Source: Escherichia phage TR2
Length of the DNA: 45,171 bases
Sequence record: OP251154.1
Strand: one strand, 5' to 3'
This document shows positions 2,009-44,578 of this stretch, in pieces. Within the stretch, counting starts at the first letter, position 1; each line of letters opens with the position of its first letter. The notes beneath the pieces were generated by a model that worked only from the letters and a program-made list of their open reading frames with translations, did no database searches and was not told where the DNA came from. The position numbers and the translations under genes are program-made.

Positions 2009-2051
2009 ATTATGCCGGATTTCTCCGGCGATTGTTTAGCAATTCGTGCTA
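2009..2051 (-). promoter_or_regulatory. operator/-10 promoter cassette (TAGCA-N5-TGCTA, 22-nt spacer, CATAAT)
   Basis: Plus 2037-2051 TAGCAattcgTGCTA; -10 at plus 2009-2014; leader CATCGACAACACGA then ATG at 1977. Confidence 0.55.
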
Positions 2052-2531
2052 TTGTCCATTCAGGAGTAATTTAGCTTCCCGATAAAACTCCATCGCCGCC
2101 TCAACCTCTTCCTCGCTGTACCGCAAGTGGTATGGTAGTCTACTAGGATGCTTACCTTCGTAGACCTTGAAGTTAGGCTCCCAACACTCATTGAGTATTG
2201 CGGGGTGAACATAAACCTTATCGCCAATTAGACATGTAACATTCATCTTGTCGAGCTCTGGGATTAGCTTGTCCTTGATGAGCAACATCACTCCATTACG
2301 CCCAACAAAAGGCTTAACCTTTCGAGCTCCTTCATATACAGACCTGACACCAACCACTCCTTTCCCGTTAACTCCCATCTTCCTGATGATTTTAATTAGC
2401 ACACCAAGCTCATCACCTGAGTACACATCTGACGTATCAATCGAACCCCAGAATGGCGTTGACTGACGATACCCATTTGCATTTATTACGATTCTGACTG
2501 GCGAAAGTCCATCTTGCCTGGCGATATTCAT
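2049..2531 (-). CDS. internally truncated paralog of the P-loop replication protein at 5132..6715
   Basis: N-terminus (RIVINANGYRQSTPFW) and C-terminal ~70 aa (NGKGVVGVRSVYEGARKVKPF...TCLIGDKVY) match the ends of the 527-aa protein; central Walker-A region absent. Confidence 0.6.
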   Translation of the reverse strand: MNIARQDGLSPVRIVINANGYRQSTPFWGSIDTSDVYSGDELGVLIKIIRKMGVNGKGVVGVRSVYEGARKVKPFVGRNGVMLLIKDKLIPELDKMNVTCLIGDKVYVHPAILNECWEPNFKVYEGKHPSRLPYHLRYSEEEVEAAMEFYREAKLLLNGQ

Positions 2532-2572: not shown

Positions 2573-3061
2573 TTATTTAATCTCCTCAATAATCAAACGA
2601 TAATCTTTAATTGCTTTCATTGCTGCTGCGAGCGCTTCACCTTCATACTCCGATAGGTCTGGCATGACTTTCGATATCTTAGCCTTGAATTCAGTTATTG
2701 CCTCCACCTTGATTGCGTCATTGGTCTTCTTCCTGATACCAATGTTGGCAGTTCCAGGGATCAGTTTGATAACCAGCCTCTTGCCATCTGATAGCTCTGT
2801 CACGCCGAATTGGCTTTTGCCGCTATCTTCATCATAGTAGTGAGTCGCCTTCATACCTGCGTCTCTCAACTCAGGCATGCGAGCTGTTGTGTTGTAGATG
2901 TATGAGCTCTTAAGCTTCTTAATGGAACCATCTTCACTGCCAATAATGCTTTCAATTTTCCTTAGTGAAACGCTGAATTGCTTATCTTCAGATTTTAGAG
3001 CCTGTTTTACCATCTCGCGAATCACTTGACCCAATGTTGCTTTCTCATTCATGTTTATCAC
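2573..3061 (-). CDS. hypothetical protein (162 aa)
   Basis: ORF track; sigma70-like TTGATT-17-TATGAT upstream on minus strand (around plus 3080-3110). Confidence 0.55.
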   Translation of the reverse strand: MINMNEKATLGQVIREMVKQALKSEDKQFSVSLRKIESIIGSEDGSIKKLKSSYIYNTTARMPELRDAGMKATHYYDEDSGKSQFGVTELSDGKRLVIKLIPGTANIGIRKKTNDAIKVEAITEFKAKISKVMPDLSEYEGEALAAAMKAIKDYRLIIEEIK

Positions 3062-3322
3062 TCCTCTCGTTTAGGTTGAATCCATCATATATCGACTTAC
3101 ACACGTAATCAAGTGTAATTTTTGGTAACTTTTAGGTGTGGTTACGCGAAATGGCATCCTAGCCAAGCTATAGCTAAATGTAGTTTGTGGTAACGCCTGT
3201 AACGCATAAATTGGGTGGGGTTGCCCAATACTGGCTATTTCTTCCATAAAATTGCAGATATGTACTCTGATAGGAAAAAACATATATATAGCAGAAGAGC
3301 ACCAGTTACATGACTTACATAC

Positions 3323-3350
3323 AATAATAATAATAATAATAATAATAATA
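3323..3350. repeat. (AAT)9 microsatellite followed by (AT)7 at 3359-3372
   Basis: Perfect trinucleotide repeat read directly; produces the spurious poly-Ile ORF 3252..3509. Confidence 0.9.
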
Positions 3351-3396
3351 GAAAGAAGATATATATATATATTAAGTACTTATAGTGTAAGTCTAG

Positions 3397-3422
3397 GCGT
3401 AGCTTCGCGTAACTCGCGTAAC
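3397..3422. promoter_or_regulatory. three phased iterons GCGTAGC/GCGTAAC/GCGTAAC
   Basis: Starts at 3397, 3407, 3416 (10- and 9-bp spacing); more GTAACGC/GGTTACG sites at 3126-3210 and 3453-3463. Confidence 0.5.
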
Positions 3423-3542
3423 GATAGTGGTTGGCTTACATCGCGCTACGCCGGTTACGTGTATGCGGCAAAATGGCTCGGCCAGAATAAAAATCAACTT
3501 GTATGGTAGTCCATCCACCATTCATTCACCCTCACATCAATA

Positions 3543-3636
3543 ATTGCAAATTCTGCAACAATCAAAAAAATCATTGCATCAGATGCAATATTGCTATATG
3601 TGCAATAATGAGATGAATCATTGCAATAACTGCAAT
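3543..3636. promoter_or_regulatory. array of three ATTGCA-N5-TGCAAT palindromic operator-like sites
   Basis: Sites at 3543-3559 (ATTGCAaattcTGCAAC), 3573-3589 (ATTGCAtcagaTGCAAT), 3620-3636 (ATTGCAataacTGCAAT); same GCA-N5-TGC core as the promoter operator. Confidence 0.5.
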
Positions 3637-3655
3637 AATACATAAACCCAACGAA

Positions 3656-3699
3656 TAGCACTTTTTGCTAATGACAAACATTGGTAACGAGACCATAAT
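3656..3699 (+). promoter_or_regulatory. operator/-10 promoter cassette for the plus-strand early operon
   Basis: TAGCActtttTGCTA at 3656-3670, 23-nt spacer, CATAAT at 3694-3699, leader CATCAACAACGAGGAGAG, ATG at 3727. Confidence 0.55.
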
Positions 3700-3726
3700 G
3701 AATCCATCAACAACGAGGAGAGAGAT

Positions 3727-4320: not shown

Positions 4321-4481
4321 TGCTATTACCATCTGAGATTAACTATTTTGATCTGGAAGTTATTAGTTCTTACAGCGGCAAGGGCTGGCCTTGCGGGGAA
4401 TGGTTCAACGAGGACTTGCTTGAATCTCACGAGATTATGCTTAAGGCGATTGAGAAGGCGAGAAATAGCACGAATTGCTAA
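4320..4481 (+). CDS. small hypothetical protein (53 aa)
   Basis: Manually translated MLLPSEINYFDLEV...ARNSTNC; ATG overlaps upstream stop; last codons are the operator sequence. Confidence 0.45.
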   Translation: MLLPSEINYFDLEVISSYSGKGWPCGEWFNEDLLESHEIMLKAIEKARNSTNC

Positions 4482-4508
4482 AGCCCTTCGGGGCTTTTGT
4501 TGTATAGT
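4466..4508 (+). promoter_or_regulatory. operator/-10 promoter cassette
   Basis: TAGCAcgaatTGCTA at 4466-4480, 22-nt spacer holding hairpin GCCCttcgGGGC plus T-run, TATAGT at 4503-4508, then CATCGAAACGAAA. Confidence 0.55.
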
Positions 4509-5131: not shown

Positions 5132-6715
5132 ATGTTTGATTTCAACGAAGATAAACTATCTGTTGAACAAGTTATGGCGATTGCCGCGACCGACAACCTC
5201 CCACCGCTTCGCGTTGCCATTAATGCAAATGGCTATCGGCAGTCTCAATCATTCTGGAAAACACCTGTGGAGATTGACGCAGGTAATGACAAGTACCCTG
5301 TAATATCTCTAGGCAATGACATTGATGTTGTTGGTAAGCTCTCGGCAAATATTGCTCGCTCAGTTCAGTTCCCAGAGTCATCAGCATACATGCACTTTTT
5401 GGGTTGTGTGTCCGCTGCGATGCTAGGGCGCTTTACTGTTGAGTATCACGGAACCCAGCAGCCAACATCGCTTTACGTGGTAACTAGCCAGCCGCCATCT
5501 ACTGGTAAGTCAGCCATTAACTCTCTGTCAATTGCGCCAATGATTGCTGAGACTGAGCGTTTGAACGAGGTGCGTAAACGTGACCGCAAAAAGATTATGG
5601 CTAAGCTGTCTGCGCTAGCAAAAGAAATGAAACAGGAGAAGTCACCATCTGAGATGGCTTCACTGTTTGAGGAGAAGGAAGATTTAGAGGAAAAGCTCGA
5701 GAAGCTGTGCGATATCGTATTCCCGGTCTCAGATACTACGCCAGAAGGTCTTGCACGAATCAACAACCGCCAGGGTAACTTTGCGGTCATCTCGGATGAG
5801 GCAACAAGCGTCAACTCATTATTGGGCATGACATACGGTGATGGTTCCAAGAAAACGAACAGCGAGCTTGTACTTAAAGCGTGGGATGCTGGTAACGTAT
5901 CTATTGCCCGCGCTAACGCAGAAAACAACATGAGTTTCGTGGCAATGGGGTGCATCTCTGTAATTGCTCAGGATGAAACAATCAATGCGATTATGAATGC
6001 TGGTGCGCGTGGTATTGGTGTTTCCGAGCGTTTCCTTCTGGTGCGTGAAAAGTCATTTCTTGGAGACCGCGTGTTTGTTGATGAGAATGGCGATTCAACA
6101 TACGAGGCTATTGATGATGGTCTTAAAGCAGACTATTTCCGTCTCGTTCATGAAATTATGAATGAAGTTGAAGTGAAACTGACAGTAAGTGCGTCATCCA
6201 TGCGCTACCTTAACCGAGCTCGCCAGGAAATGGAACCGCATCTTGGTGATGGCGGTAAATATTCCCACACGATGTTACGTGGTGCTCTTGGTAAATTTGA
6301 TAAGCAAGCAATCCGTATTGCCTCAGTATTGCACGTTATTCGCAACTGGTTCGCACCGGCAGGGTCGAGTCCGCAGAAATCAAGAGAGATTGAGCTTGAA
6401 ACAATGCAAGAAGCGGTTATGATTTTCCACGAGTTAAGCAAGACTTATTTGTCGTCCGCTAGTGCTGCTGGTCATGCTGGTGATAATGCTGAAATGAATA
6501 AGCTGGTTGATATCCTGATTAAGCAAGGTAAGAATGGGAAGGGTGTTGTTGGCGTTCGCTCACTGTATGAAGCAGCACGCAAAGTTAAACCTTTTGAAGG
6601 ACAGGCTGGCGTAATGACTCGCATCAAGGACCACTTGGTTCCTATGCTTGATGAGAAAAACTATACATGCCTGATTGGTGATAAGATTTACATTAATCCG
6701 CGATTGTTGGGGTGA
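5132..6715 (+). CDS. putative replication initiator/helicase-like P-loop NTPase (527 aa)
   Basis: Walker-A-like TSQPPSTGKSA; has its own promoter cassette; N- and C-terminal segments duplicated in 2049..2531. Confidence 0.6.
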   Translation: MFDFNEDKLSVEQVMAIAATDNLPPLRVAINANGYRQSQSFWKTPVEIDAGNDKYPVISLGNDIDVVGKLSANIARSVQFPESSAYMHFLGCVSAAMLGRFTVEYHGTQQPTSLYVVTSQPPSTGKSAINSLSIAPMIAETERLNEVRKRDRKKIMAKLSALAKEMKQEKSPSEMASLFEEKEDLEEKLEKLCDIVFPVSDTTPEGLARINNRQGNFAVISDEATSVNSLLGMTYGDGSKKTNSELVLKAWDAGNVSIARANAENNMSFVAMGCISVIAQDETINAIMNAGARGIGVSERFLLVREKSFLGDRVFVDENGDSTYEAIDDGLKADYFRLVHEIMNEVEVKLTVSASSMRYLNRARQEMEPHLGDGGKYSHTMLRGALGKFDKQAIRIASVLHVIRNWFAPAGSSPQKSREIELETMQEAVMIFHELSKTYLSSASAAGHAGDNAEMNKLVDILIKQGKNGKGVVGVRSLYEAARKVKPFEGQAGVMTRIKDHLVPMLDEKNYTCLIGDKIYINPRLLG

Positions 6716-7452: not shown

Positions 7453-7934
7453 TTACCAACCCCGCTTAAGCACAATTTAATCTCCTCGTTACGCCTGTTT
7501 ACGAGACCCTTGACTACCTTCAGCTTGCCATTTATTCGAGCCTTGTTCCACATCCCGAGAGCCTTGCAACCCTGCTCAACTTTACCCTGGTTAATCAGCC
7601 GTACAGCCGTTGACTTCCTCATTGCAGAACCGCCAACGTTATAACTAAAGCTGATTAACGCCGCCCTTGTTTCTGGTGAAATTGGATAGGTAACTGCATC
7701 CTGCACATACTTACCATGAATCTTAATGTGCCTCTCCAGCAAGTTACGGCACTCCCTTGCGCTGTATACTTTACCAACAATAACATCTGGGCCAGTCACA
7801 CCAGAACAAACCGTAGGTATGCCAGCAATATCCATATATGGCCTGTACTCTACACCCTCAACAAGCTCAATAACCGGCGCTGCGATGTATATTGCCGCTG
7901 CCGTCGCTGCACTAATTATCAGCCTTTGCTTCAT
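7449..7934 (-). CDS. SAR endolysin (lysozyme-like)
   Basis: N-terminal signal-anchor MKQRLIISAATAAAIYIAAP followed by a lysozyme-like domain; position within the lysis cassette. Confidence 0.7.
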   Translation of the reverse strand: MKQRLIISAATAAAIYIAAPVIELVEGVEYRPYMDIAGIPTVCSGVTGPDVIVGKVYSARECRNLLERHIKIHGKYVQDAVTYPISPETRAALISFSYNVGGSAMRKSTAVRLINQGKVEQGCKALGMWNKARINGKLKVVKGLVNRRNEEIKLCLSGVGK

Positions 7935-12032: not shown

Positions 12033-12075
12033 ATAATACACCACTTCATCAATTCGTCTTTAGCAATTCGTGCTA
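12033..12075 (-). promoter_or_regulatory. operator/-10 promoter cassette
   Basis: Plus 12061-12075 TAGCAattcgTGCTA; -10 TATTAT (plus 12033-12038) inside inverted repeat GATGAAGTG/CACTTCATC; leader CATCGAAACGAAA. Confidence 0.55.
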
Positions 12076-12492
12076 TTTTCTAATCATCTCTGCGAATGCA
12101 GCAAGAAAACCATCTCTGCCGTAGGCAACTCCTGCGAAACCGCCTGATTCCCTTACGCTTTTTAGGAATGACTTTTGCTCATCACTTACTGGGCTAGCCT
12201 GTGTTTTCCCAGCCCTCTTTAGCTCTATTGCGCCAAATGGATAACTTCCTCGTAATGACTCAGGTATTAGAAATAGGCAGTCTGATACGCCTTTAAGAAG
12301 TCCTTTAGCCTGGTCTTTCCTTGCCTGACCAATGCTCTTCATTGATTCATTAACTGTGTGCCAGTAAACAACCTGCGGATAGTTATACTTAACCCAATCA
12401 GAGCAAAAGATTTGTTCGTCGTCTTCCTTCGGGCATGACTTCACCGGGCCGCCATAGAACTCGAGGTAGTCAGTTTTGTCTGTAACTTTCAT
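12073..12492 (-). CDS. VRR-NUC domain nuclease
   Basis: PD-(D/E)XK-like motifs (GVSDCLFL, GAIELKRAGK, SPVSDEQKSFL); ATGA overlap with helicase stop. Confidence 0.6.
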   Translation of the reverse strand: MKVTDKTDYLEFYGGPVKSCPKEDDEQIFCSDWVKYNYPQVVYWHTVNESMKSIGQARKDQAKGLLKGVSDCLFLIPESLRGSYPFGAIELKRAGKTQASPVSDEQKSFLKSVRESGGFAGVAYGRDGFLAAFAEMIRK

Positions 12493-14579: not shown

Positions 14580-15062
14580 ATGTGTGAAATCGACAAGCGA
14601 ACTATTAACGGCAATAACGGAACCGTGCGCACAAAAGACAAAAAGCAACGCAAACGACCATCAGGCTACTACGTATTGAAAGATGAGGTAAAGGCTGGGC
14701 TACGTGCTCGCCTGGAGATGGTTCTTGATTTCTACGGTACAAAGGCGAACATCGCAAAGCAGTTAAATGTGTCCAACCAAGCTGTATCGGAATGGTTTAA
14801 CCGCGGTATGATTTCGGCTCGAGGGGCTCAGCGAGCACATAATGCGTACAAGCGAAATAAGGAGGGATTTCGAGCTACATTCTGCCGACCAGACCTGCAA
14901 TTCGACGGAAACGGAAAACCGCTAACACTTCGATGCAAGAAGCGCCATATGCTTCGCGTAGTTACCGATGCAGAACTAGCAACAAAGCCACCCTGTCGAC
15001 CATGGCGAAAGAATAAGGCCGCTAACGAGGCAGCGCGAAAAGCTAAAGAGCAAGGGAAATAG
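14580..15062 (+). CDS. putative HTH DNA-binding protein (Cro/YdaS-like)
   Basis: HTH-like segment KANIAKQLNVSNQAVSEWFNRG; basic C-terminal half; first gene of plus operon. Confidence 0.5.
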   Translation: MCEIDKRTINGNNGTVRTKDKKQRKRPSGYYVLKDEVKAGLRARLEMVLDFYGTKANIAKQLNVSNQAVSEWFNRGMISARGAQRAHNAYKRNKEGFRATFCRPDLQFDGNGKPLTLRCKKRHMLRVVTDAELATKPPCRPWRKNKAANEAARKAKEQGK

Positions 15063-15102: not shown

Positions 15103-15128
15103 GCCTTTATTGTTTATGGAGGGTGTAT

Positions 15129-15653
15129 ATGAAAGTTAATGATTTCGTTTATGTTGACGATGAATTTAAATTAAGATGGAAGAGTCGAGGTGCCGAACTC
15201 TTTAAAACAGATAGGTCATCAAAGATCTGGAATAGTAGGTTTGCAGGCAAGAAATGTGGATACATTAGGGATGACGGTTATCTTTCTTTTGAGTTCAAAG
15301 GACGAGCATACAGAAATCACAGGGTGATATGGGAGATTGTAACTGGTAATGAAATAGGTGATAACATGGAGATCGATCATATAGATCATAATACAACAAA
15401 CAACAATATTGAAAACCTTAGAGTTGTTGACAGGAAAGAGAATTGCAAAAATCAACCCATGATGCCCCACAACTCAAGTGGATTCACAGGTGTTTACTGG
15501 TGGTCAACGAGAAACAAATGGAGAGCCCGCATTGAATGTGATGGCAAGGTGAAAACAAAATCATTTGAAGACTTTAATGATGCTGTCGAGTGGAGAAAAG
15601 AAATGAACATAAATCTTGGCTTTCACAAGAATCATGGGGATAAGAAAAAATGA
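15129..15653 (+). CDS. HNH homing endonuclease with AP2 domain
   Basis: HNH motif IDHIDHN...IENLRVV and AP2-like SGFTGVYW...W.A.I; start set at ATG 15129 after GGAGGG. Confidence 0.8.
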   Translation: MKVNDFVYVDDEFKLRWKSRGAELFKTDRSSKIWNSRFAGKKCGYIRDDGYLSFEFKGRAYRNHRVIWEIVTGNEIGDNMEIDHIDHNTTNNNIENLRVVDRKENCKNQPMMPHNSSGFTGVYWWSTRNKWRARIECDGKVKTKSFEDFNDAVEWRKEMNINLGFHKNHGDKKK

Positions 15654-16573
15654 AAACTTATGATAAGAAAGAAGTATTGCCAAGAATGCTGGGGATGTGG
15701 AAAGATGCTCTAATAAATATCTGTGATGCACCTGCGAACTTCTTTAATGGCAAGCACCATCCATGCCTATACTGTGGAGGTCGGGATAGAGCTAGATGGA
15801 CTGATAACCTATCTATAAAAGGTGATGGCGGAAATATATGCAATCAGTGTGGGAACGACACTGGGATAGGATTAATGATGAAGCTTACTGGAATGAACTA
15901 CAGTGAGGCTATAAATACGCTTGGTGACTGGTTAAACCTGGTTCCAGTTGAGGTTGTAGCTAAAGCAAACAAAAGAGCATCAAGAACATCACCATACAAA
16001 ATGGGCGCTCAGATTGACCACGAAAGATGCTTAGAGATAATGGAAAGGACGGAAAGAGTAGAATCAACTCCACTCAGTACATACGAGGGTATCTATAGCG
16101 AGTTCGGCTTTGATGTTGGCAGGACGAAATCAGGAGAACTAATACACGCAGTGCCGTGCTTTATGGCTTATAGTGACGGCGTGTCAGAAGAAATGTGCAA
16201 TGTGATGTTTATCAATGAGGAAGGGGATGTTAGTTATGCTGCAAAAGATTATACTCGCCAATCTGTGGCTGTTATTGGTTCCCTTAAGGATAGTGAGTAC
16301 GCTTATCTGGTCGATAATTGGATTGATGGTGTTCGCGTTCATCTTGCTACTGGCAGTCGCTGCGTTCTTGTTTGCCACTCCAGCTACAACATGGAAATGG
16401 TTGCTTATGCGCTTAGAAACTACAAGTTACGCGTCGCTTGCACTCGCCACTCTTTTGATTTACTCGCCGTTGCTGATGATCGCAATCTTGATGTTGTAAT
16501 GCCAAATGATGATAATTTTTTCAAGTCAGGAATAAGAAAGCGCATATACAAGGCAAGCGAATTACTAGACTAA
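15650..16573 (+). CDS. putative DNA primase (zinc-ribbon N-terminus)
   Basis: Cys4 zinc ribbon HPCLYCGG...CNQCG at N-terminus; replication-module context. Confidence 0.5.
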   Translation: MKTYDKKEVLPRMLGMWKDALINICDAPANFFNGKHHPCLYCGGRDRARWTDNLSIKGDGGNICNQCGNDTGIGLMMKLTGMNYSEAINTLGDWLNLVPVEVVAKANKRASRTSPYKMGAQIDHERCLEIMERTERVESTPLSTYEGIYSEFGFDVGRTKSGELIHAVPCFMAYSDGVSEEMCNVMFINEEGDVSYAAKDYTRQSVAVIGSLKDSEYAYLVDNWIDGVRVHLATGSRCVLVCHSSYNMEMVAYALRNYKLRVACTRHSFDLLAVADDRNLDVVMPNDDNFFKSGIRKRIYKASELLD

Positions 16574-19324: not shown

Positions 19325-19367
19325 ATGATAACCCACCAGTTAATTTTGTCTTTAGCAATTAGTGCTA
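19325..19367 (-). promoter_or_regulatory. operator/-10 promoter cassette
   Basis: Plus 19353-19367 TAGCAattagTGCTA, 22-nt spacer, TATCAT (plus 19325-19330), leader CATTGAAACGA. Confidence 0.55.
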
Positions 19368-19844
19368 TTTACCATGATTTTCATGGAAGCCGTGCTCTAT
19401 TTCAGCCTTGATCCTTGCTGCTTTTGCGTCATCAATATCAGAAAAGCATCCCAGGTGATAATCGCGGCCGTTTACTCTAATATTTGATACGTACTTCGAT
19501 AACCTTTCAACCCATGAAACACCAATAACTCCAGTTTTGTTATTGAATCTAATTGATTGATTCATTGCATTCCCTTGTTTTGTGACAAGCCTTAGGTTTT
19601 CTATTCTGTTATCTGACCTGTCGTGATTTATGTGATCAATAAACATTGCATCATCAATATCACCATTAATCATCTCCCACACAATCCTATGCGACTTGTA
19701 ATACTTACCATCAAACCTAACGTTTATGTAACCATTTGATGAATTTACATGGCCTGCAACCATGCCTTTCCTTGCTCTAGATCCGAAGTTTTTCGCCCAA
19801 ACTAGGTTGCCTGAATCGTATATAAAAACATCATTCCATCCCAT
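19365..19844 (-). CDS. HNH homing endonuclease with AP2 domain
   Basis: IDHINHDRSDNRIENLRLV plus AP2-like NKTGVIGVSW. Confidence 0.8.
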   Translation of the reverse strand: MGWNDVFIYDSGNLVWAKNFGSRARKGMVAGHVNSSNGYINVRFDGKYYKSHRIVWEMINGDIDDAMFIDHINHDRSDNRIENLRLVTKQGNAMNQSIRFNNKTGVIGVSWVERLSKYVSNIRVNGRDYHLGCFSDIDDAKAARIKAEIEHGFHENHGK

Positions 19845-21629: not shown

Positions 21630-22037
21630 TTATCCTTTGATGATTTTCACGTGTTCTGATGTTGTCTTTTCTATCCTTGCGCCTGTTTGCTCCCATTGTT
21701 TACCGTATGATAATTCGCAAAACCTAACAGCCATATCATGTGTAAGGAATATAGCCACGGGTGAATACGTTGGTAGTATAACCGTATGAGCATTCAATTT
21801 ATCAAACTTCTTCATCTCTATCTCTCTATGGTTGCGTGCTTTCGATGTGGTAATGATGCCGCATGCTTGCCACTCAGTCCAATTGGTTTCGCCAATCGTT
21901 GAATCAAGTATACGCGTATAATTCTGTAACCACGTGTAGATATGTGCATTGGTTACGTTTTTCACCACTTCAGCCCAGCCATAGCTCAATGTAAAAGGTG
22001 CGTATATCGTGTATACCGATTTTAGCGGAGGGTGCAT
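21630..22037 (-). CDS. hypothetical protein (135 aa); start uncertain
   Basis: ORF track; no SD before the annotated ATG, so it may be shorter. Confidence 0.35.
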   Translation of the reverse strand: MHPPLKSVYTIYAPFTLSYGWAEVVKNVTNAHIYTWLQNYTRILDSTIGETNWTEWQACGIITTSKARNHREIEMKKFDKLNAHTVILPTYSPVAIFLTHDMAVRFCELSYGKQWEQTGARIEKTTSEHVKIIKG

Positions 22038-22110
22038 GGGTATGGGTGGCGATCAATACTGTATAAAATCACATGATATAAAAATTATAACCGGAACACT
22101 CCAAAACAGT

Positions 22111-22277
22111 AGTTACATGATATACACAGTAATATATATAATAATAATAATAAAAGTAAAAGGTTGATATATATAGATATTTTAATGTAACTATGGCGTA
22201 ACTTTGCGTAACTGGGCGTATACGATTTCCCGCGGATGCATATGGTATACATCGAGTTACATCGGTTACGTGTAACC
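22111..22277. repeat. noncoding module B (homolog of module A at 3305..3466)
   Basis: TTACATGA, (AT)4(ATA)4, GATATATATAGATATTTT, iterons, ACATCG, palindrome GGTTAC-GT-GTAACC at 22264-22277. Confidence 0.7.
22196..22222. promoter_or_regulatory. three phased iterons GCGTAAC/GCGTAAC/GCGTATA
   Basis: Starts at 22196, 22206, 22216 (exact 10-bp spacing). Confidence 0.5.
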
Positions 22278-22304
22278 ATGATTTATGGGTAGACTTGAGA
22301 TAAA

Positions 22305-22347
22305 TAGCACGATTTGCTAAAGACAAGCTGCAATATTTGGGCATATT
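22305..22347 (+). promoter_or_regulatory. operator/-10 promoter cassette (weak -10)
   Basis: TAGCAcgattTGCTA at 22305-22319, 22-nt spacer, CATATT at 22342-22347. Confidence 0.45.
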
Positions 22348-22445
22348 GTGCGCATGACGGCAATGGTGCTGCCATCCAACCTAAATTTCAGGCTGGGAAC
22401 CAAAGTGATGGCTCAGATTTGAGCCATGAAAAAACCAGAAGAGAG

Positions 22446-22589
22446 ATGAAAATGAACCTAACTCTACTAAATGAAGATGTAAAAATGAACAGTTATCAGT
22501 TTTTGAATGAAGTTATCAACCCAGCGAGGTTAGTTGCCGGTGAATCTGATGTTCGGCACAATGACTTTGTTGAGAGGATAGAGGATTAG
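22446..22589 (+). CDS. small hypothetical protein (47 aa)
   Basis: Internal Met of ORF 22314..22589 after purine-rich SD; the 5' part of that ORF overlaps the promoter. Confidence 0.3.
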   Translation: MKMNLTLLNEDVKMNSYQFLNEVINPARLVAGESDVRHNDFVERIED

Positions 22590-22673: not shown

Positions 22674-23129
22674 GTGCTTAATATGGAACAGATGCTTCTT
22701 GTTGGAATGCGTGAGTCAAAGTCTGTTCGCCGTGCGGTTCTTAATAAGCTTAAAGAGATGCAGTCCACCATCAACAAACAAACGGAAGTAATCAGCCAGA
22801 TGGTGAGTATTGATGAGCTAAAAGAAGCGCGCGTGATGCTTGGTGTGGCTAATGCGCAGAACGCTCACCTTAGCCAGCGAATCGTTGCGGAGCAGCGAAT
22901 CAATGAAATCCTCCTTATGGATAAGAACATTGACGAGAAGCTTGACCTTCTCGCTTGTGAAGCTCGGCAGTCTTGGGTATCACGTTCCGATGAAATGGAA
23001 GCAAGGTTTAGGTATGAAGCACAATGTTTCGCTCTTAAAGAGAAGACTGACGCACTGGCAGGATTGATCGAGAATAAACTTGGTATCGACATTAAGCCGT
23101 TGCTGGAAAGAAGCAGCACGAATAGCTAA
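22674..23129 (+). CDS. hypothetical coiled-coil protein (151 aa); start uncertain
   Basis: ORF track (GTG 22674 or ATG 22683); C-terminal codons SSTNS-stop are the next operator. Confidence 0.5.
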   Translation: MLNMEQMLLVGMRESKSVRRAVLNKLKEMQSTINKQTEVISQMVSIDELKEARVMLGVANAQNAHLSQRIVAEQRINEILLMDKNIDEKLDLLACEARQSWVSRSDEMEARFRYEAQCFALKEKTDALAGLIENKLGIDIKPLLERSSTNS

Positions 23130-44071: not shown

Positions 44072-44578
44072 TTACGCTCTCGTATTTAGGTAGCCTTTAT
44101 TTTCAGAGCCATGATTTTCATGATATCCGTTCAATTTGTCATACTGCGACCTTGCCAATGCAGCCTCCTCTATAGTGTCCTTGTAGCATATGAAGACTGT
44201 TTTACCAAACTCTCTAGCCTGAACAAGCCATCTATTCTCTCTTTTGCACCAGCTTACACCGTTTATTCCGCTTTTATTTCTTGATGATAGTGATCTGTTA
44301 TTTGAGTTCTCTTTATTGCTTACTAACCTTAAGTTCTCTATTCTATTGTCACTTCTATTTTGGTTTATGTGATCTATGTGCATGCCTTTAGGGATTGCTC
44401 CATTGTGCATCTCCCACACCACCCTGTGACACCTGTATGCTTTTTGTCTATACTTTAGTATCACATAGCCAAATTTATCAACTCTTCCGGCCACCTCTCC
44501 AACCTTTGATACATTTGCTACTTTTACCTTTCTTATTAAAAGCCCGTCTCTATATTCAAAAATATCATGCCAATTCAT
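44072..44578 (-). CDS. HNH homing endonuclease with AP2 domain, between small and large terminase genes
   Basis: IDHINQNRSDNRIENLRLV plus AP2-like NKSGINGVSW. Confidence 0.8.
   Translation of the reverse strand: MNWHDIFEYRDGLLIRKVKVANVSKVGEVAGRVDKFGYVILKYRQKAYRCHRVVWEMHNGAIPKGMHIDHINQNRSDNRIENLRLVSNKENSNNRSLSSRNKSGINGVSWCKRENRWLVQAREFGKTVFICYKDTIEEAALARSQYDKLNGYHENHGSENKGYLNTRA

Follow-up and report, generated by a model that had tools for sequence, protein, structure and literature searches.

Where does a T1-like phage begin to copy its genome? T1 belongs to the classic set of seven T phages, and T1-like phages are notorious contaminants of laboratories and fermenters. The question is raised by a segment, here called module A (positions 3305-3466), in the genome of Escherichia phage TR2 (OP251154.1), a T1-like coliphage (Drexlerviridae, Braunvirinae) whose complete sequence of 45,171 bp is the window analysed here. 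Module A joins an extreme A/T tract to arrays of short phased repeats; an earlier reading of the letters (the original prediction) had also reported a homologous copy 18.8 kb away, and this copy, module B, lies at 22112-22277. No origin was identified in the T1-like phages TLS (PMC11447400) and SU57 (PMC7718038), and the literature that we searched holds no mapped T1 origin, pac sequence, transcription start site data, function for the DUF3987 protein family or account of the modules.

On balance, and with moderate confidence, we propose that DNA replication starts at module A, and probably at module B too, from an origin of the self-loading initiator helicase type. The iteron-type origin suggested originally is thus the best-supported reading of the features observed here, namely the layout of the modules and the conservation of their cores, the duplex instability extremes, the recurrence of the layout across the family and in distant relatives, and the fold of an MCM-like helicase. 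The wording 'classic iteron' is inexact: the repeat cores are 5-7 bp long at ~10-bp spacing, as in the origins of staphylococcal pathogenicity islands (SaPIs), and not 17-22 bp. For T1-like phages, this analysis provides two candidate origins, a candidate initiator (the DUF3987 protein), a candidate for its regulator and a comparative signature that runs through the family.

Two modules share one repeat architecture

Module A lies within a 665-bp gap between divergent genes (3062-3726) and module B within the second large divergent gap. Both have the same order of parts: two repeat sites, an A/T core of ~65 bp, four sites in the opposite orientation (9-12 bp spacing), a spacer of 12-22 bp, and three sites that are inverted again. 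The repeats share a core of ~RYGTA(A/G/T), 5-7 bp, with nine sites in module A and 9-10 in module B. All the copies listed in the original prediction are present, but the array is larger than it had described, comprising two minus-strand, four plus-strand and three minus-strand sites.

In module A, the left repeat pair (3305-3320, minus strand) consists of GTTACAT and CTTACAT, 9 bp apart, which read ATGTAAC and ATGTAAG on the minus strand. The A/T core (3323-3372, plus strand) is built from (AAT)9, AGAAAGAAG and (AT)7. Tandem Repeats Finder reports the first of these as (AAT)9.3 at 3323-3350, and the (AT)7 can be read directly at 3359-3372, both as predicted. Four phased repeats follow on the plus strand (3385-3422; GTGTAAG, GCGTAGC, GCGTAAC and GCGTAAC), with their GTA cores 12, 10 and 9 bp apart; the last three are the phased repeats first noticed (GCGTAGC at 3397-3403, GCGTAAC at 3407-3413 and 3416-3422, spacing 10 and 9 bp). 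A variable spacer (3423-3434) separates the four-copy array from the three inverted repeats (3435-3463, minus strand; CTTACAT, GCTACGC and GTTACGT, 10 and 9 bp apart), where the homology to module B ends at GGTTACGTGTA.

Module B repeats this plan with differences in detail. Its left pair (22112-22127, minus strand) is GTTACAT and ATATACAC, and its A/T core (22128-22184, plus strand) contains a TA run, (AAT)4, AAAAGTAAAAGG and TGATATATATAGATAT. The four phased repeats (22185-22223, plus strand) are ATGTAAC, GCGTAAC, GCGTAAC and GCGTATAC, spaced 11, 10 and 10 bp, and the three inverted repeats (22245-22277, minus strand) are GTATACAT, GTTACAT and GTTACGT, the last with an overlapping GTGTAAC. 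GTATAC variants of the repeat are present in module B. The single match to the integration host factor (IHF) consensus across both gaps falls midway along the A/T core of module B (22157-22169, TATCAACCTTTTA on the minus strand); it is invariant among the module-B relatives, and module A has no equivalent.

The homology between the modules spans ~410 bp (3050-3463 versus 21862-22274), with a local alignment score of 157 compared with 30 +/- 4 for shuffles. The modules are therefore homologous as claimed, but the homology is not limited to the ~160 bp originally marked. From the extent of this alignment, the duplicated unit is ~410 bp long and takes in the DNA that immediately precedes the leftward genes. 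The left block of the unit at A (3050-3304), which includes the promoter-proximal region of the leftward operon, carries GTAAC-type sites at 3096, 3126, 3141, 3190 and 3198; the extra copies that had been pointed out nearby correspond to GTAAC/GTTAC sites at 3126, 3141, 3190-3204 and 3454. The homologous left block at B (21862-22111) has conserved short motifs with variable spacers and is overlapped by an open reading frame (ORF) of 135 aa (21630-22037, minus strand). This ORF is probably over-extended at its N-terminal end, and the relatives ES and 12210I annotate the start of the coding sequence (CDS) at ~21813-21815. Because its extra 220 bp are homologous to non-coding DNA of gap A, we take the true gap B to be ~21816-22445.

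The A/T cores are the weakest duplexes of the genome

Nearest-neighbour duplex stability was calculated along the genome, and the two A/T cores are its two least stable windows at 40, 60 and 100 bp. With 60-bp windows, the module A core (window 3324-3383) and the module B core (window 22130-22189) reach -53.2 and -55.6 kcal/mol, respectively; the next window is at -64.3, and the genome mean is -80.5 (s.d. 4.7). The two equivalent positions also rank first and second in TR3, CEB_EC3a and T1, the last of which belongs to another subfamily.

The repeats are clustered as well. The largest cluster of RYGTAAC per 100 bp holds six copies at module B and three at module A, compared with a mean of 1.7 and a maximum of four in shuffles; thus, only the module B cluster beats every shuffle. 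Across the whole genome GCGTAAC occurs 19 times, versus 3.6 expected from dinucleotide shuffles and 7-9 from order-3 and order-4 Markov models, and because the excess shrinks under the latter we give no weight to scattered single sites. Considered as a whole (instability extreme, repeat clustering and core conservation), the pattern of the modules exceeds chance.

Other signals of origins or structured elements were sought in the same sequences. GC skew along the genome tracks gene orientation only and is uninformative as an origin marker. A DnaA-dependent origin of the oriC type was rejected since neither gap contains a DnaA box within one mismatch or a GATC cluster; one gap has no GATC site and the other a single one, and there is none in the repeats. 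A structured RNA or single-stranded DNA element was likewise rejected, as the only Rfam match in the window is a tRNA, and the fold z-scores of the two modules against shuffles are -0.75 and +0.85.

Repeat cores and tract lengths are conserved

Around the modules, the window shares 100% identity with Escherichia phage TR3 and 99.7% with CY1, and there are ~116 related records. We aligned module A from seven phages and module B from seven phages. Although the flanks in these phages share no more than 80-90% identity, the entire A/T core and each of the repeat cores change little or not at all; for example, the left pair of module A varies at one position. Substitutions gather in the inter-array spacer and in the 3-nt spacers that separate the cores. 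Poorly conserved DNA borders each module on either side, and the small ORFs nearby are less conserved than the module. In T1, the order of the module is the same, with GCGTAAT replacing GCGTAAC.

The length of the A/T tract is identical in all seven module-A relatives and in six of the seven module-B relatives, the seventh having one 3-bp deletion. With this single deletion in 14 sequences, the label 'microsatellite' used in the original prediction does not fit, and a contingency (phase-variable) or hypervariable microsatellite was rejected on the same ground. The A/T tracts, near-invariant in length, are constrained sequence and not slippage-prone filler.

An MCM-like helicase is the candidate initiator

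The candidate initiator is a DUF3987 'helicase' of 527 aa (5132-6715, plus strand), predicted to consist of an MCM-like AAA+ core and a C-terminal winged helix (aa ~448-527). Sequence comparison gave no informative match in the PDB and no detectable similarity to solved Rep or Cch chains. A confident AlphaFold model based on an alignment with 34 homologues (predicted local distance difference test, pLDDT, 89.5; predicted template modelling score, pTM, 0.87) has fold matches to MCM, to Cch (5dgk) and to PriRep (7ola). In the model, an MCM-like AAA+ ATPase is thus followed by a winged helix at the C terminus, and this modelled domain plan matches that of the self-loading initiator helicases of staphylococcal islands. 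Among 20 phage proteins scanned against Pfam and PHROG, including the replication genes and those flanking the modules, no other initiator was recognised, and there was no homologue of O/P or Rep. The phage primase is encoded by a separate gene (15650-16573), and in the T1 record the annotation of the primase notes a similarity to alpha proteins of the P4 family.

Among the homologues, leaving out one close pair, the winged helix is 23-47% identical and the ATPase core 36-61% identical. Faster divergence of the winged helix is as expected of a specificity domain.

The phage also encodes a 'mini' paralogue of the helicase (160 aa; 2049-2531, minus strand), in which ~36 N-terminal aa (46% identity) are joined to a winged helix (61% identity) and the ATPase is missing. 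This paralogue is found in CEB_EC3a and not in T1. It is possible that it acts as a competitor or regulator at the same DNA sites as the helicase.

The layout recurs with lineage-specific repeats

Seven contigs with helicase homologues of 35-53% identity served as a set of distant relatives. In six of these, an A/T or trinucleotide tract is flanked by short repeats. In five, the tract lies in the gap heading the helicase operon (in L038, 5.4 kb upstream of the gene), and in L042 the element directly follows the gene. The remaining contig, L040, breaks off in an extreme A/T tract ~600 bp ahead of its helicase gene, and the short part of the gap that it covers shows no element. The flanking repeats differ from one contig to the next. 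An A/T tract is flanked by three copies of GGTAACA in L036, by TGGGGT/ACCCCA in L039 and by TTCGCCC/GGGCGAA in L041. In L037, TGTAAG/CTTACA repeats flank (AAC)12 at 5390-5425; in L038, ACGCCCAC repeats accompany (TA)7 followed by (AAT)6 at ~344-361; and in L042, ACCCCA/TGGGGT repeats flank (TAG)4 at 7838-7852 together with TA runs. The long runs of L037, L038 and L042 are perfect, and wherever clear trinucleotide runs are seen, they are on the helicase-coding strand.

A wider survey covered 80 Drexlerviridae loci from IMG/VR, with an extreme tract defined as a 60-bp window with a free energy (dG) above -62. In 53 of the 80 loci, an extreme A/T tract forms the weakest 60-bp window, and the extreme windows tabulated by position all lie upstream of the helicase gene, at distances of 1.6-5.6 kb. 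A record end cuts 25 of the remaining 27 loci, several because the record opens at this very gap. Inverted 7-mers flank the A/T tract in 43 of the 53 loci versus ~24 expected at random positions, in what is an overly permissive test. Trinucleotide runs of at least four units occur in 30 of the 53 related elements and are absent from all TLS-like elements inspected. TLS-like phages also have the element, with repeats of the TGAACA/TGTTTA type, whereas the TLS paper reports no iterons (PMC11447400). A fixed layout with lineage-specific repeats is as expected of an origin with a cognate initiator.

Many deposited genomes and metagenomic contigs start or end at the module, as does the L040 assembly in its extreme A/T tract. 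The records of ZL19, CEB_EC3a, Sf12, Rao1, T1 and Rtp start or end within or beside it, in part owing to the T1 numbering convention.

A proposed mechanism and its known counterparts

We predict that initiation would proceed as follows. The winged helix of the DUF3987 helicase would bind the short YGTA-type repeats, which the ~10-bp phasing places on one face of the DNA and which are oppositely oriented on each side of the A/T core. Oligomers built on both sides could then melt the 50-65 bp A/T tract, the weakest duplex of the genome. The helicase would load itself at the melted tract, and the separate phage primase together with host polymerase would begin synthesis. The 160-aa paralogue, with its winged helix and no ATPase, may compete for the same sites and tune firing. 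In this scheme we infer the identity of the repeat-binding protein, the melting, and the start of replication at the modules.

The closest counterparts are the SaPI origins, which contain 6-12 penta- or hexanucleotide iterons and an AT-rich centre with at least two opposed iterons on each side; these iterons are read by the C-terminal winged helix of the Rep helicase (PMC9371898). Modules A and B match them in the length (5-7 nt) and number (6-12 per origin) of the iterons, and in having an AT-rich centre with at least two opposed iterons per side. The initiators also appear alike. SaPIs and the staphylococcal cassette chromosome SCCmec use an AAA+ helicase with a C-terminal winged helix, as the phage DUF3987 protein is modelled to be, and SaPIbov1-type Rep and SCCmec Cch are MCM-like, as is the phage model; both SaPIs and the phage have a separate primase. 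There are differences, however. The phage helicase belongs to Pfam DUF3987, the phage has a second homologous copy of the module 18.8 kb away and an extra inverted array of three repeats, and its A/T core is strictly conserved and partly trinucleotide-periodic. Moreover, SaPIs are satellites, and TR2 is a virulent siphophage of a Gram-negative host.

Phage P4 offers a second comparison. Its ori and crr are two separated cis elements, ~4.5 kb apart, with the same 8-bp iterons bound by alpha, a single polypeptide that combines a primase, a superfamily 3 (SF3) helicase and a winged helix that reads the iterons. Modules A and B resemble this pair in sharing repeat type and order. Unlike in P4, the phage primase and helicase are separate proteins, the helicase is MCM-like, and the two modules are 18.8 kb apart.

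The iterons of lambda and of plasmids are 17-22 bp long and direct, and a non-helicase initiator (O, RepA or TrfA) bound to them recruits host DnaB; the lambda ori is located inside the O gene. The likeness to the modules is that initiator-type repeats adjoin an AT-rich region. In contrast, the phage repeat unit is 9-12 bp with cores of 5-7 bp, and the arrays are opposed. Iterons of the lambda type have been sought in TLS, and none were found (PMC11447400).

The trinucleotide tracts recall a further element. They are periodic with a middle A, (AAT)9 being a series of 3'-AAT-5' repeats, and they lie beside initiator-type sites; among the relatives, the (TAG)4 of one corresponds to 3'-GAT-5', and another contains (AAC)12. 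In these respects they are like the DnaA-trio elements of bacterial oriC that Richardson et al. reportedly described in 2016. They are unlike them in that DnaA boxes (up to one mismatch) and a GATC cluster are missing and that the putative initiator is an MCM-clade ATPase and not DnaA. A more elaborate version of the origin can be drawn from this likeness, in which the trinucleotide tract would be a 'trio'-like single-strand track for an MCM-clade initiator docked on the flanking repeats, the modules would be an ori/crr-type pair or twin origins, and the paralogue would be a built-in competitor. This version is tentative, and we hold it to be rather improbable.

The kind of origin proposed here, with short opposed iterons, an AT-rich centre and a winged-helix helicase, is already known; its occurrence in T1-like phages would be new. 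Distinctive here are a second copy of the module, a third array that is again inverted, a helicase paralogue lacking the ATPase, and trinucleotide tracts that are strictly conserved. If the proposal is true, the self-loading helicase type of origin, known from staphylococcal islands, extends to virulent phages of a large enterobacterial family, DUF3987 gains a function, and a minimal replicon for engineering T1-like phages comes within view.

Evidence against an origin and alternative explanations

Several points weigh against reading the modules as helicase-loading origins. Every step of the mechanism rests on analogy. Close relatives whose helicases are 90-93% identical have GTATAC-type and not GTAAC-type sites at position A, so that the pairing of helicase and sites is only putative, and among distant relatives the similarity of the winged helices does not group by repeat type. 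Whereas SaPI origins lie directly downstream of rep, module A precedes the helicase gene by 1.7 kb and sits in a gap with divergent promoters, and module B is ~15 kb away from that gene. Both modules lie in divergent promoter regions, and the A/B homology runs into the promoter-proximal block of the leftward operon; duplication of a regulatory unit would fit this equally well. In the T1 GenBank record, the terminal redundancy, and hence the first packaging cut, is located in the same intergenic gap. Finally, a simple unwinding element would not need a strictly conserved trinucleotide tract.

The modules may instead be transcription-control hubs, in which the repeats serve as operators or enhancers that co-regulate the divergent early operons at both loci and the A/T tract acts as an UP-element, a bend or a promoter. 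Candidate binders would be the Rha/Roi-type protein beside module B, a Cro-like protein of 160 aa (14580-15062) or the 160-aa helicase paralogue. We consider such hubs unlikely, although of the alternatives this one survives best. The modules do occupy both large divergent intergenic gaps, and their homology takes in ~250 bp up to the start of the leftward genes; however, 210-290 bp separate the arrays from the best promoter candidates and both start codons, and poorly conserved spacers intervene between the arrays and the promoter-proximal blocks. The leftward operons at A and B both lack a 21-nt element (ATAGCAC...TTGnTAAA) that is found upstream of most other operons, which suggests that they may share a different promoter type. 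There are weak sigma-70-like matches inside the A/T tracts, but in both gaps such matches are not commoner than in shuffles. Regulators of the Rha/KilA/Roi type stand next to module B in many relatives, but the neighbouring regulator genes vary in type and presence. Control hubs would also leave unexplained the two weakest duplexes in every genome examined. These explanations and the origin proposal are not mutually exclusive: a bound initiator could also regulate the flanking promoters.

Replication might also start at the modules by another route, from a transcript primer (an R-loop of the T4 oriF/oriG type, or a T7-type primer) or by recombination-dependent entry, with the repeats binding an accessory factor. 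This fits the promoter-like hexamers directly upstream of the A/T tract (GTTACA-N18-AATAAT) and the purine-rich AGAAAGAAG in the module A core, but the promoter matches are weak (9/12), and an (AAU)n transcript would give a very weak RNA:DNA hybrid. Module B heads the operon of exonuclease VIII, Erf and SSB, and the putative nature of the pairing between repeats and winged helix leaves room for such a route. Against it, opposed phased arrays conserved across the family are neither needed nor explained, and we judge an origin fired in this way to be quite improbable.

It is very improbable, in our view, that module A is a pac site, or part of one, read by the small terminase subunit. The arrangement of four and three repeats around a variable spacer of 12-22 bp recalls pac of phage P1, in which 4 + 3 short repeats flank a short central spacer and terminase cuts between the two arrays. 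Unlike P1 pac, the module has no Dam sites (GATC) in its repeats, is present in two copies per genome, adjoins an extreme A/T tract, and keeps its layout across terminase families (Terminase_3, Terminase_6 and the Terminase_2 small subunit). The two homologous modules, 18.8 kb apart, also stand against the one pac known in T1. The T1 RefSeq record starts in the same gap and annotates 1-2800 as a terminal repeat, and the Rtp and CEB_EC3a records are opened there too, but these record starts may just follow the T1 convention, and position 1 of T1 and Rtp falls outside the module, in a separate TGCAAT block (window 3545-3640). In SU57, a PhageTerm end is placed in an untranslated region that is followed by small ORFs (PMC7718038), which counts in favour of a pac site.

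The least tenable explanation, that the module has no specific function and is either a hypermutable A/T microsatellite accompanied by GTAAC repeats that arose by chance or a piece of an 85-aa ORF (3252-3509) that is present in the window and annotated as a CDS over the module in TR3, is effectively refuted by the comparative data, given that tract length and sequence are nearly invariant in relatives, that the ORF is broken or shortened in five of six relatives and annotated in no other record, and that the module is better conserved than adjacent coding sequence.

Sequences and genes around the modules

The TGCAAT/ATTGCA block mentioned above lies between module A and the rightward promoter. 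It contains ~8 copies of the motif, including a 30-bp unit present twice at 3581-3639, and is kept in relatives; module B has no such block. Because the T1 and Rtp GenBank records start inside the equivalent block, it may be a pac or terminase-binding region.

Base 1 of the window lies just upstream of the small-terminase gene, which is found at the window end on the minus strand. To the left of module A, the minus strand encodes a DUF7174 protein, a 160-aa protein, small ORFs and a tRNA-Arg, and then the terminase genes; to the right, small ORFs on the plus strand precede the DUF3987 helicase gene. The leftward operon at module B encodes a Rha-like protein, exonuclease VIII, an HNH endonuclease and Erf.

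To the right of module B is a gene of the Rha/anti-repressor type (PHROG 8235), divided by an in-frame stop into a 47-aa N-terminal piece (22446-22589, plus strand) and a 151-aa C-terminal piece (22674-23129, plus strand). It is probably a pseudogene or the result of a sequencing error. At this position, relatives have an intact Roi/Rha/KilA-type gene or none.

The 21-nt element, ATAGCACnnnTTGnTAAA, has 18 sites in the genome compared with 0.5 expected (for example, at 2035-2052, 3655-3672, 4465-4482, 12059-12076 and 22304-22321), and it points along transcription wherever it was compared with the ORF map. The same repeat is reported in the TLS paper, with its function listed as an open question (PMC11447400).

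Three genes for HNH endonucleases interrupt the series of core genes: one between terS and terL (44072-44578), one upstream of the primase gene (15123-15653) and one between the genes for Erf and exonuclease VIII (19365-19844). The presence of HNH genes differs between the window and TR3, which probably explains part of the difference in length between the two.

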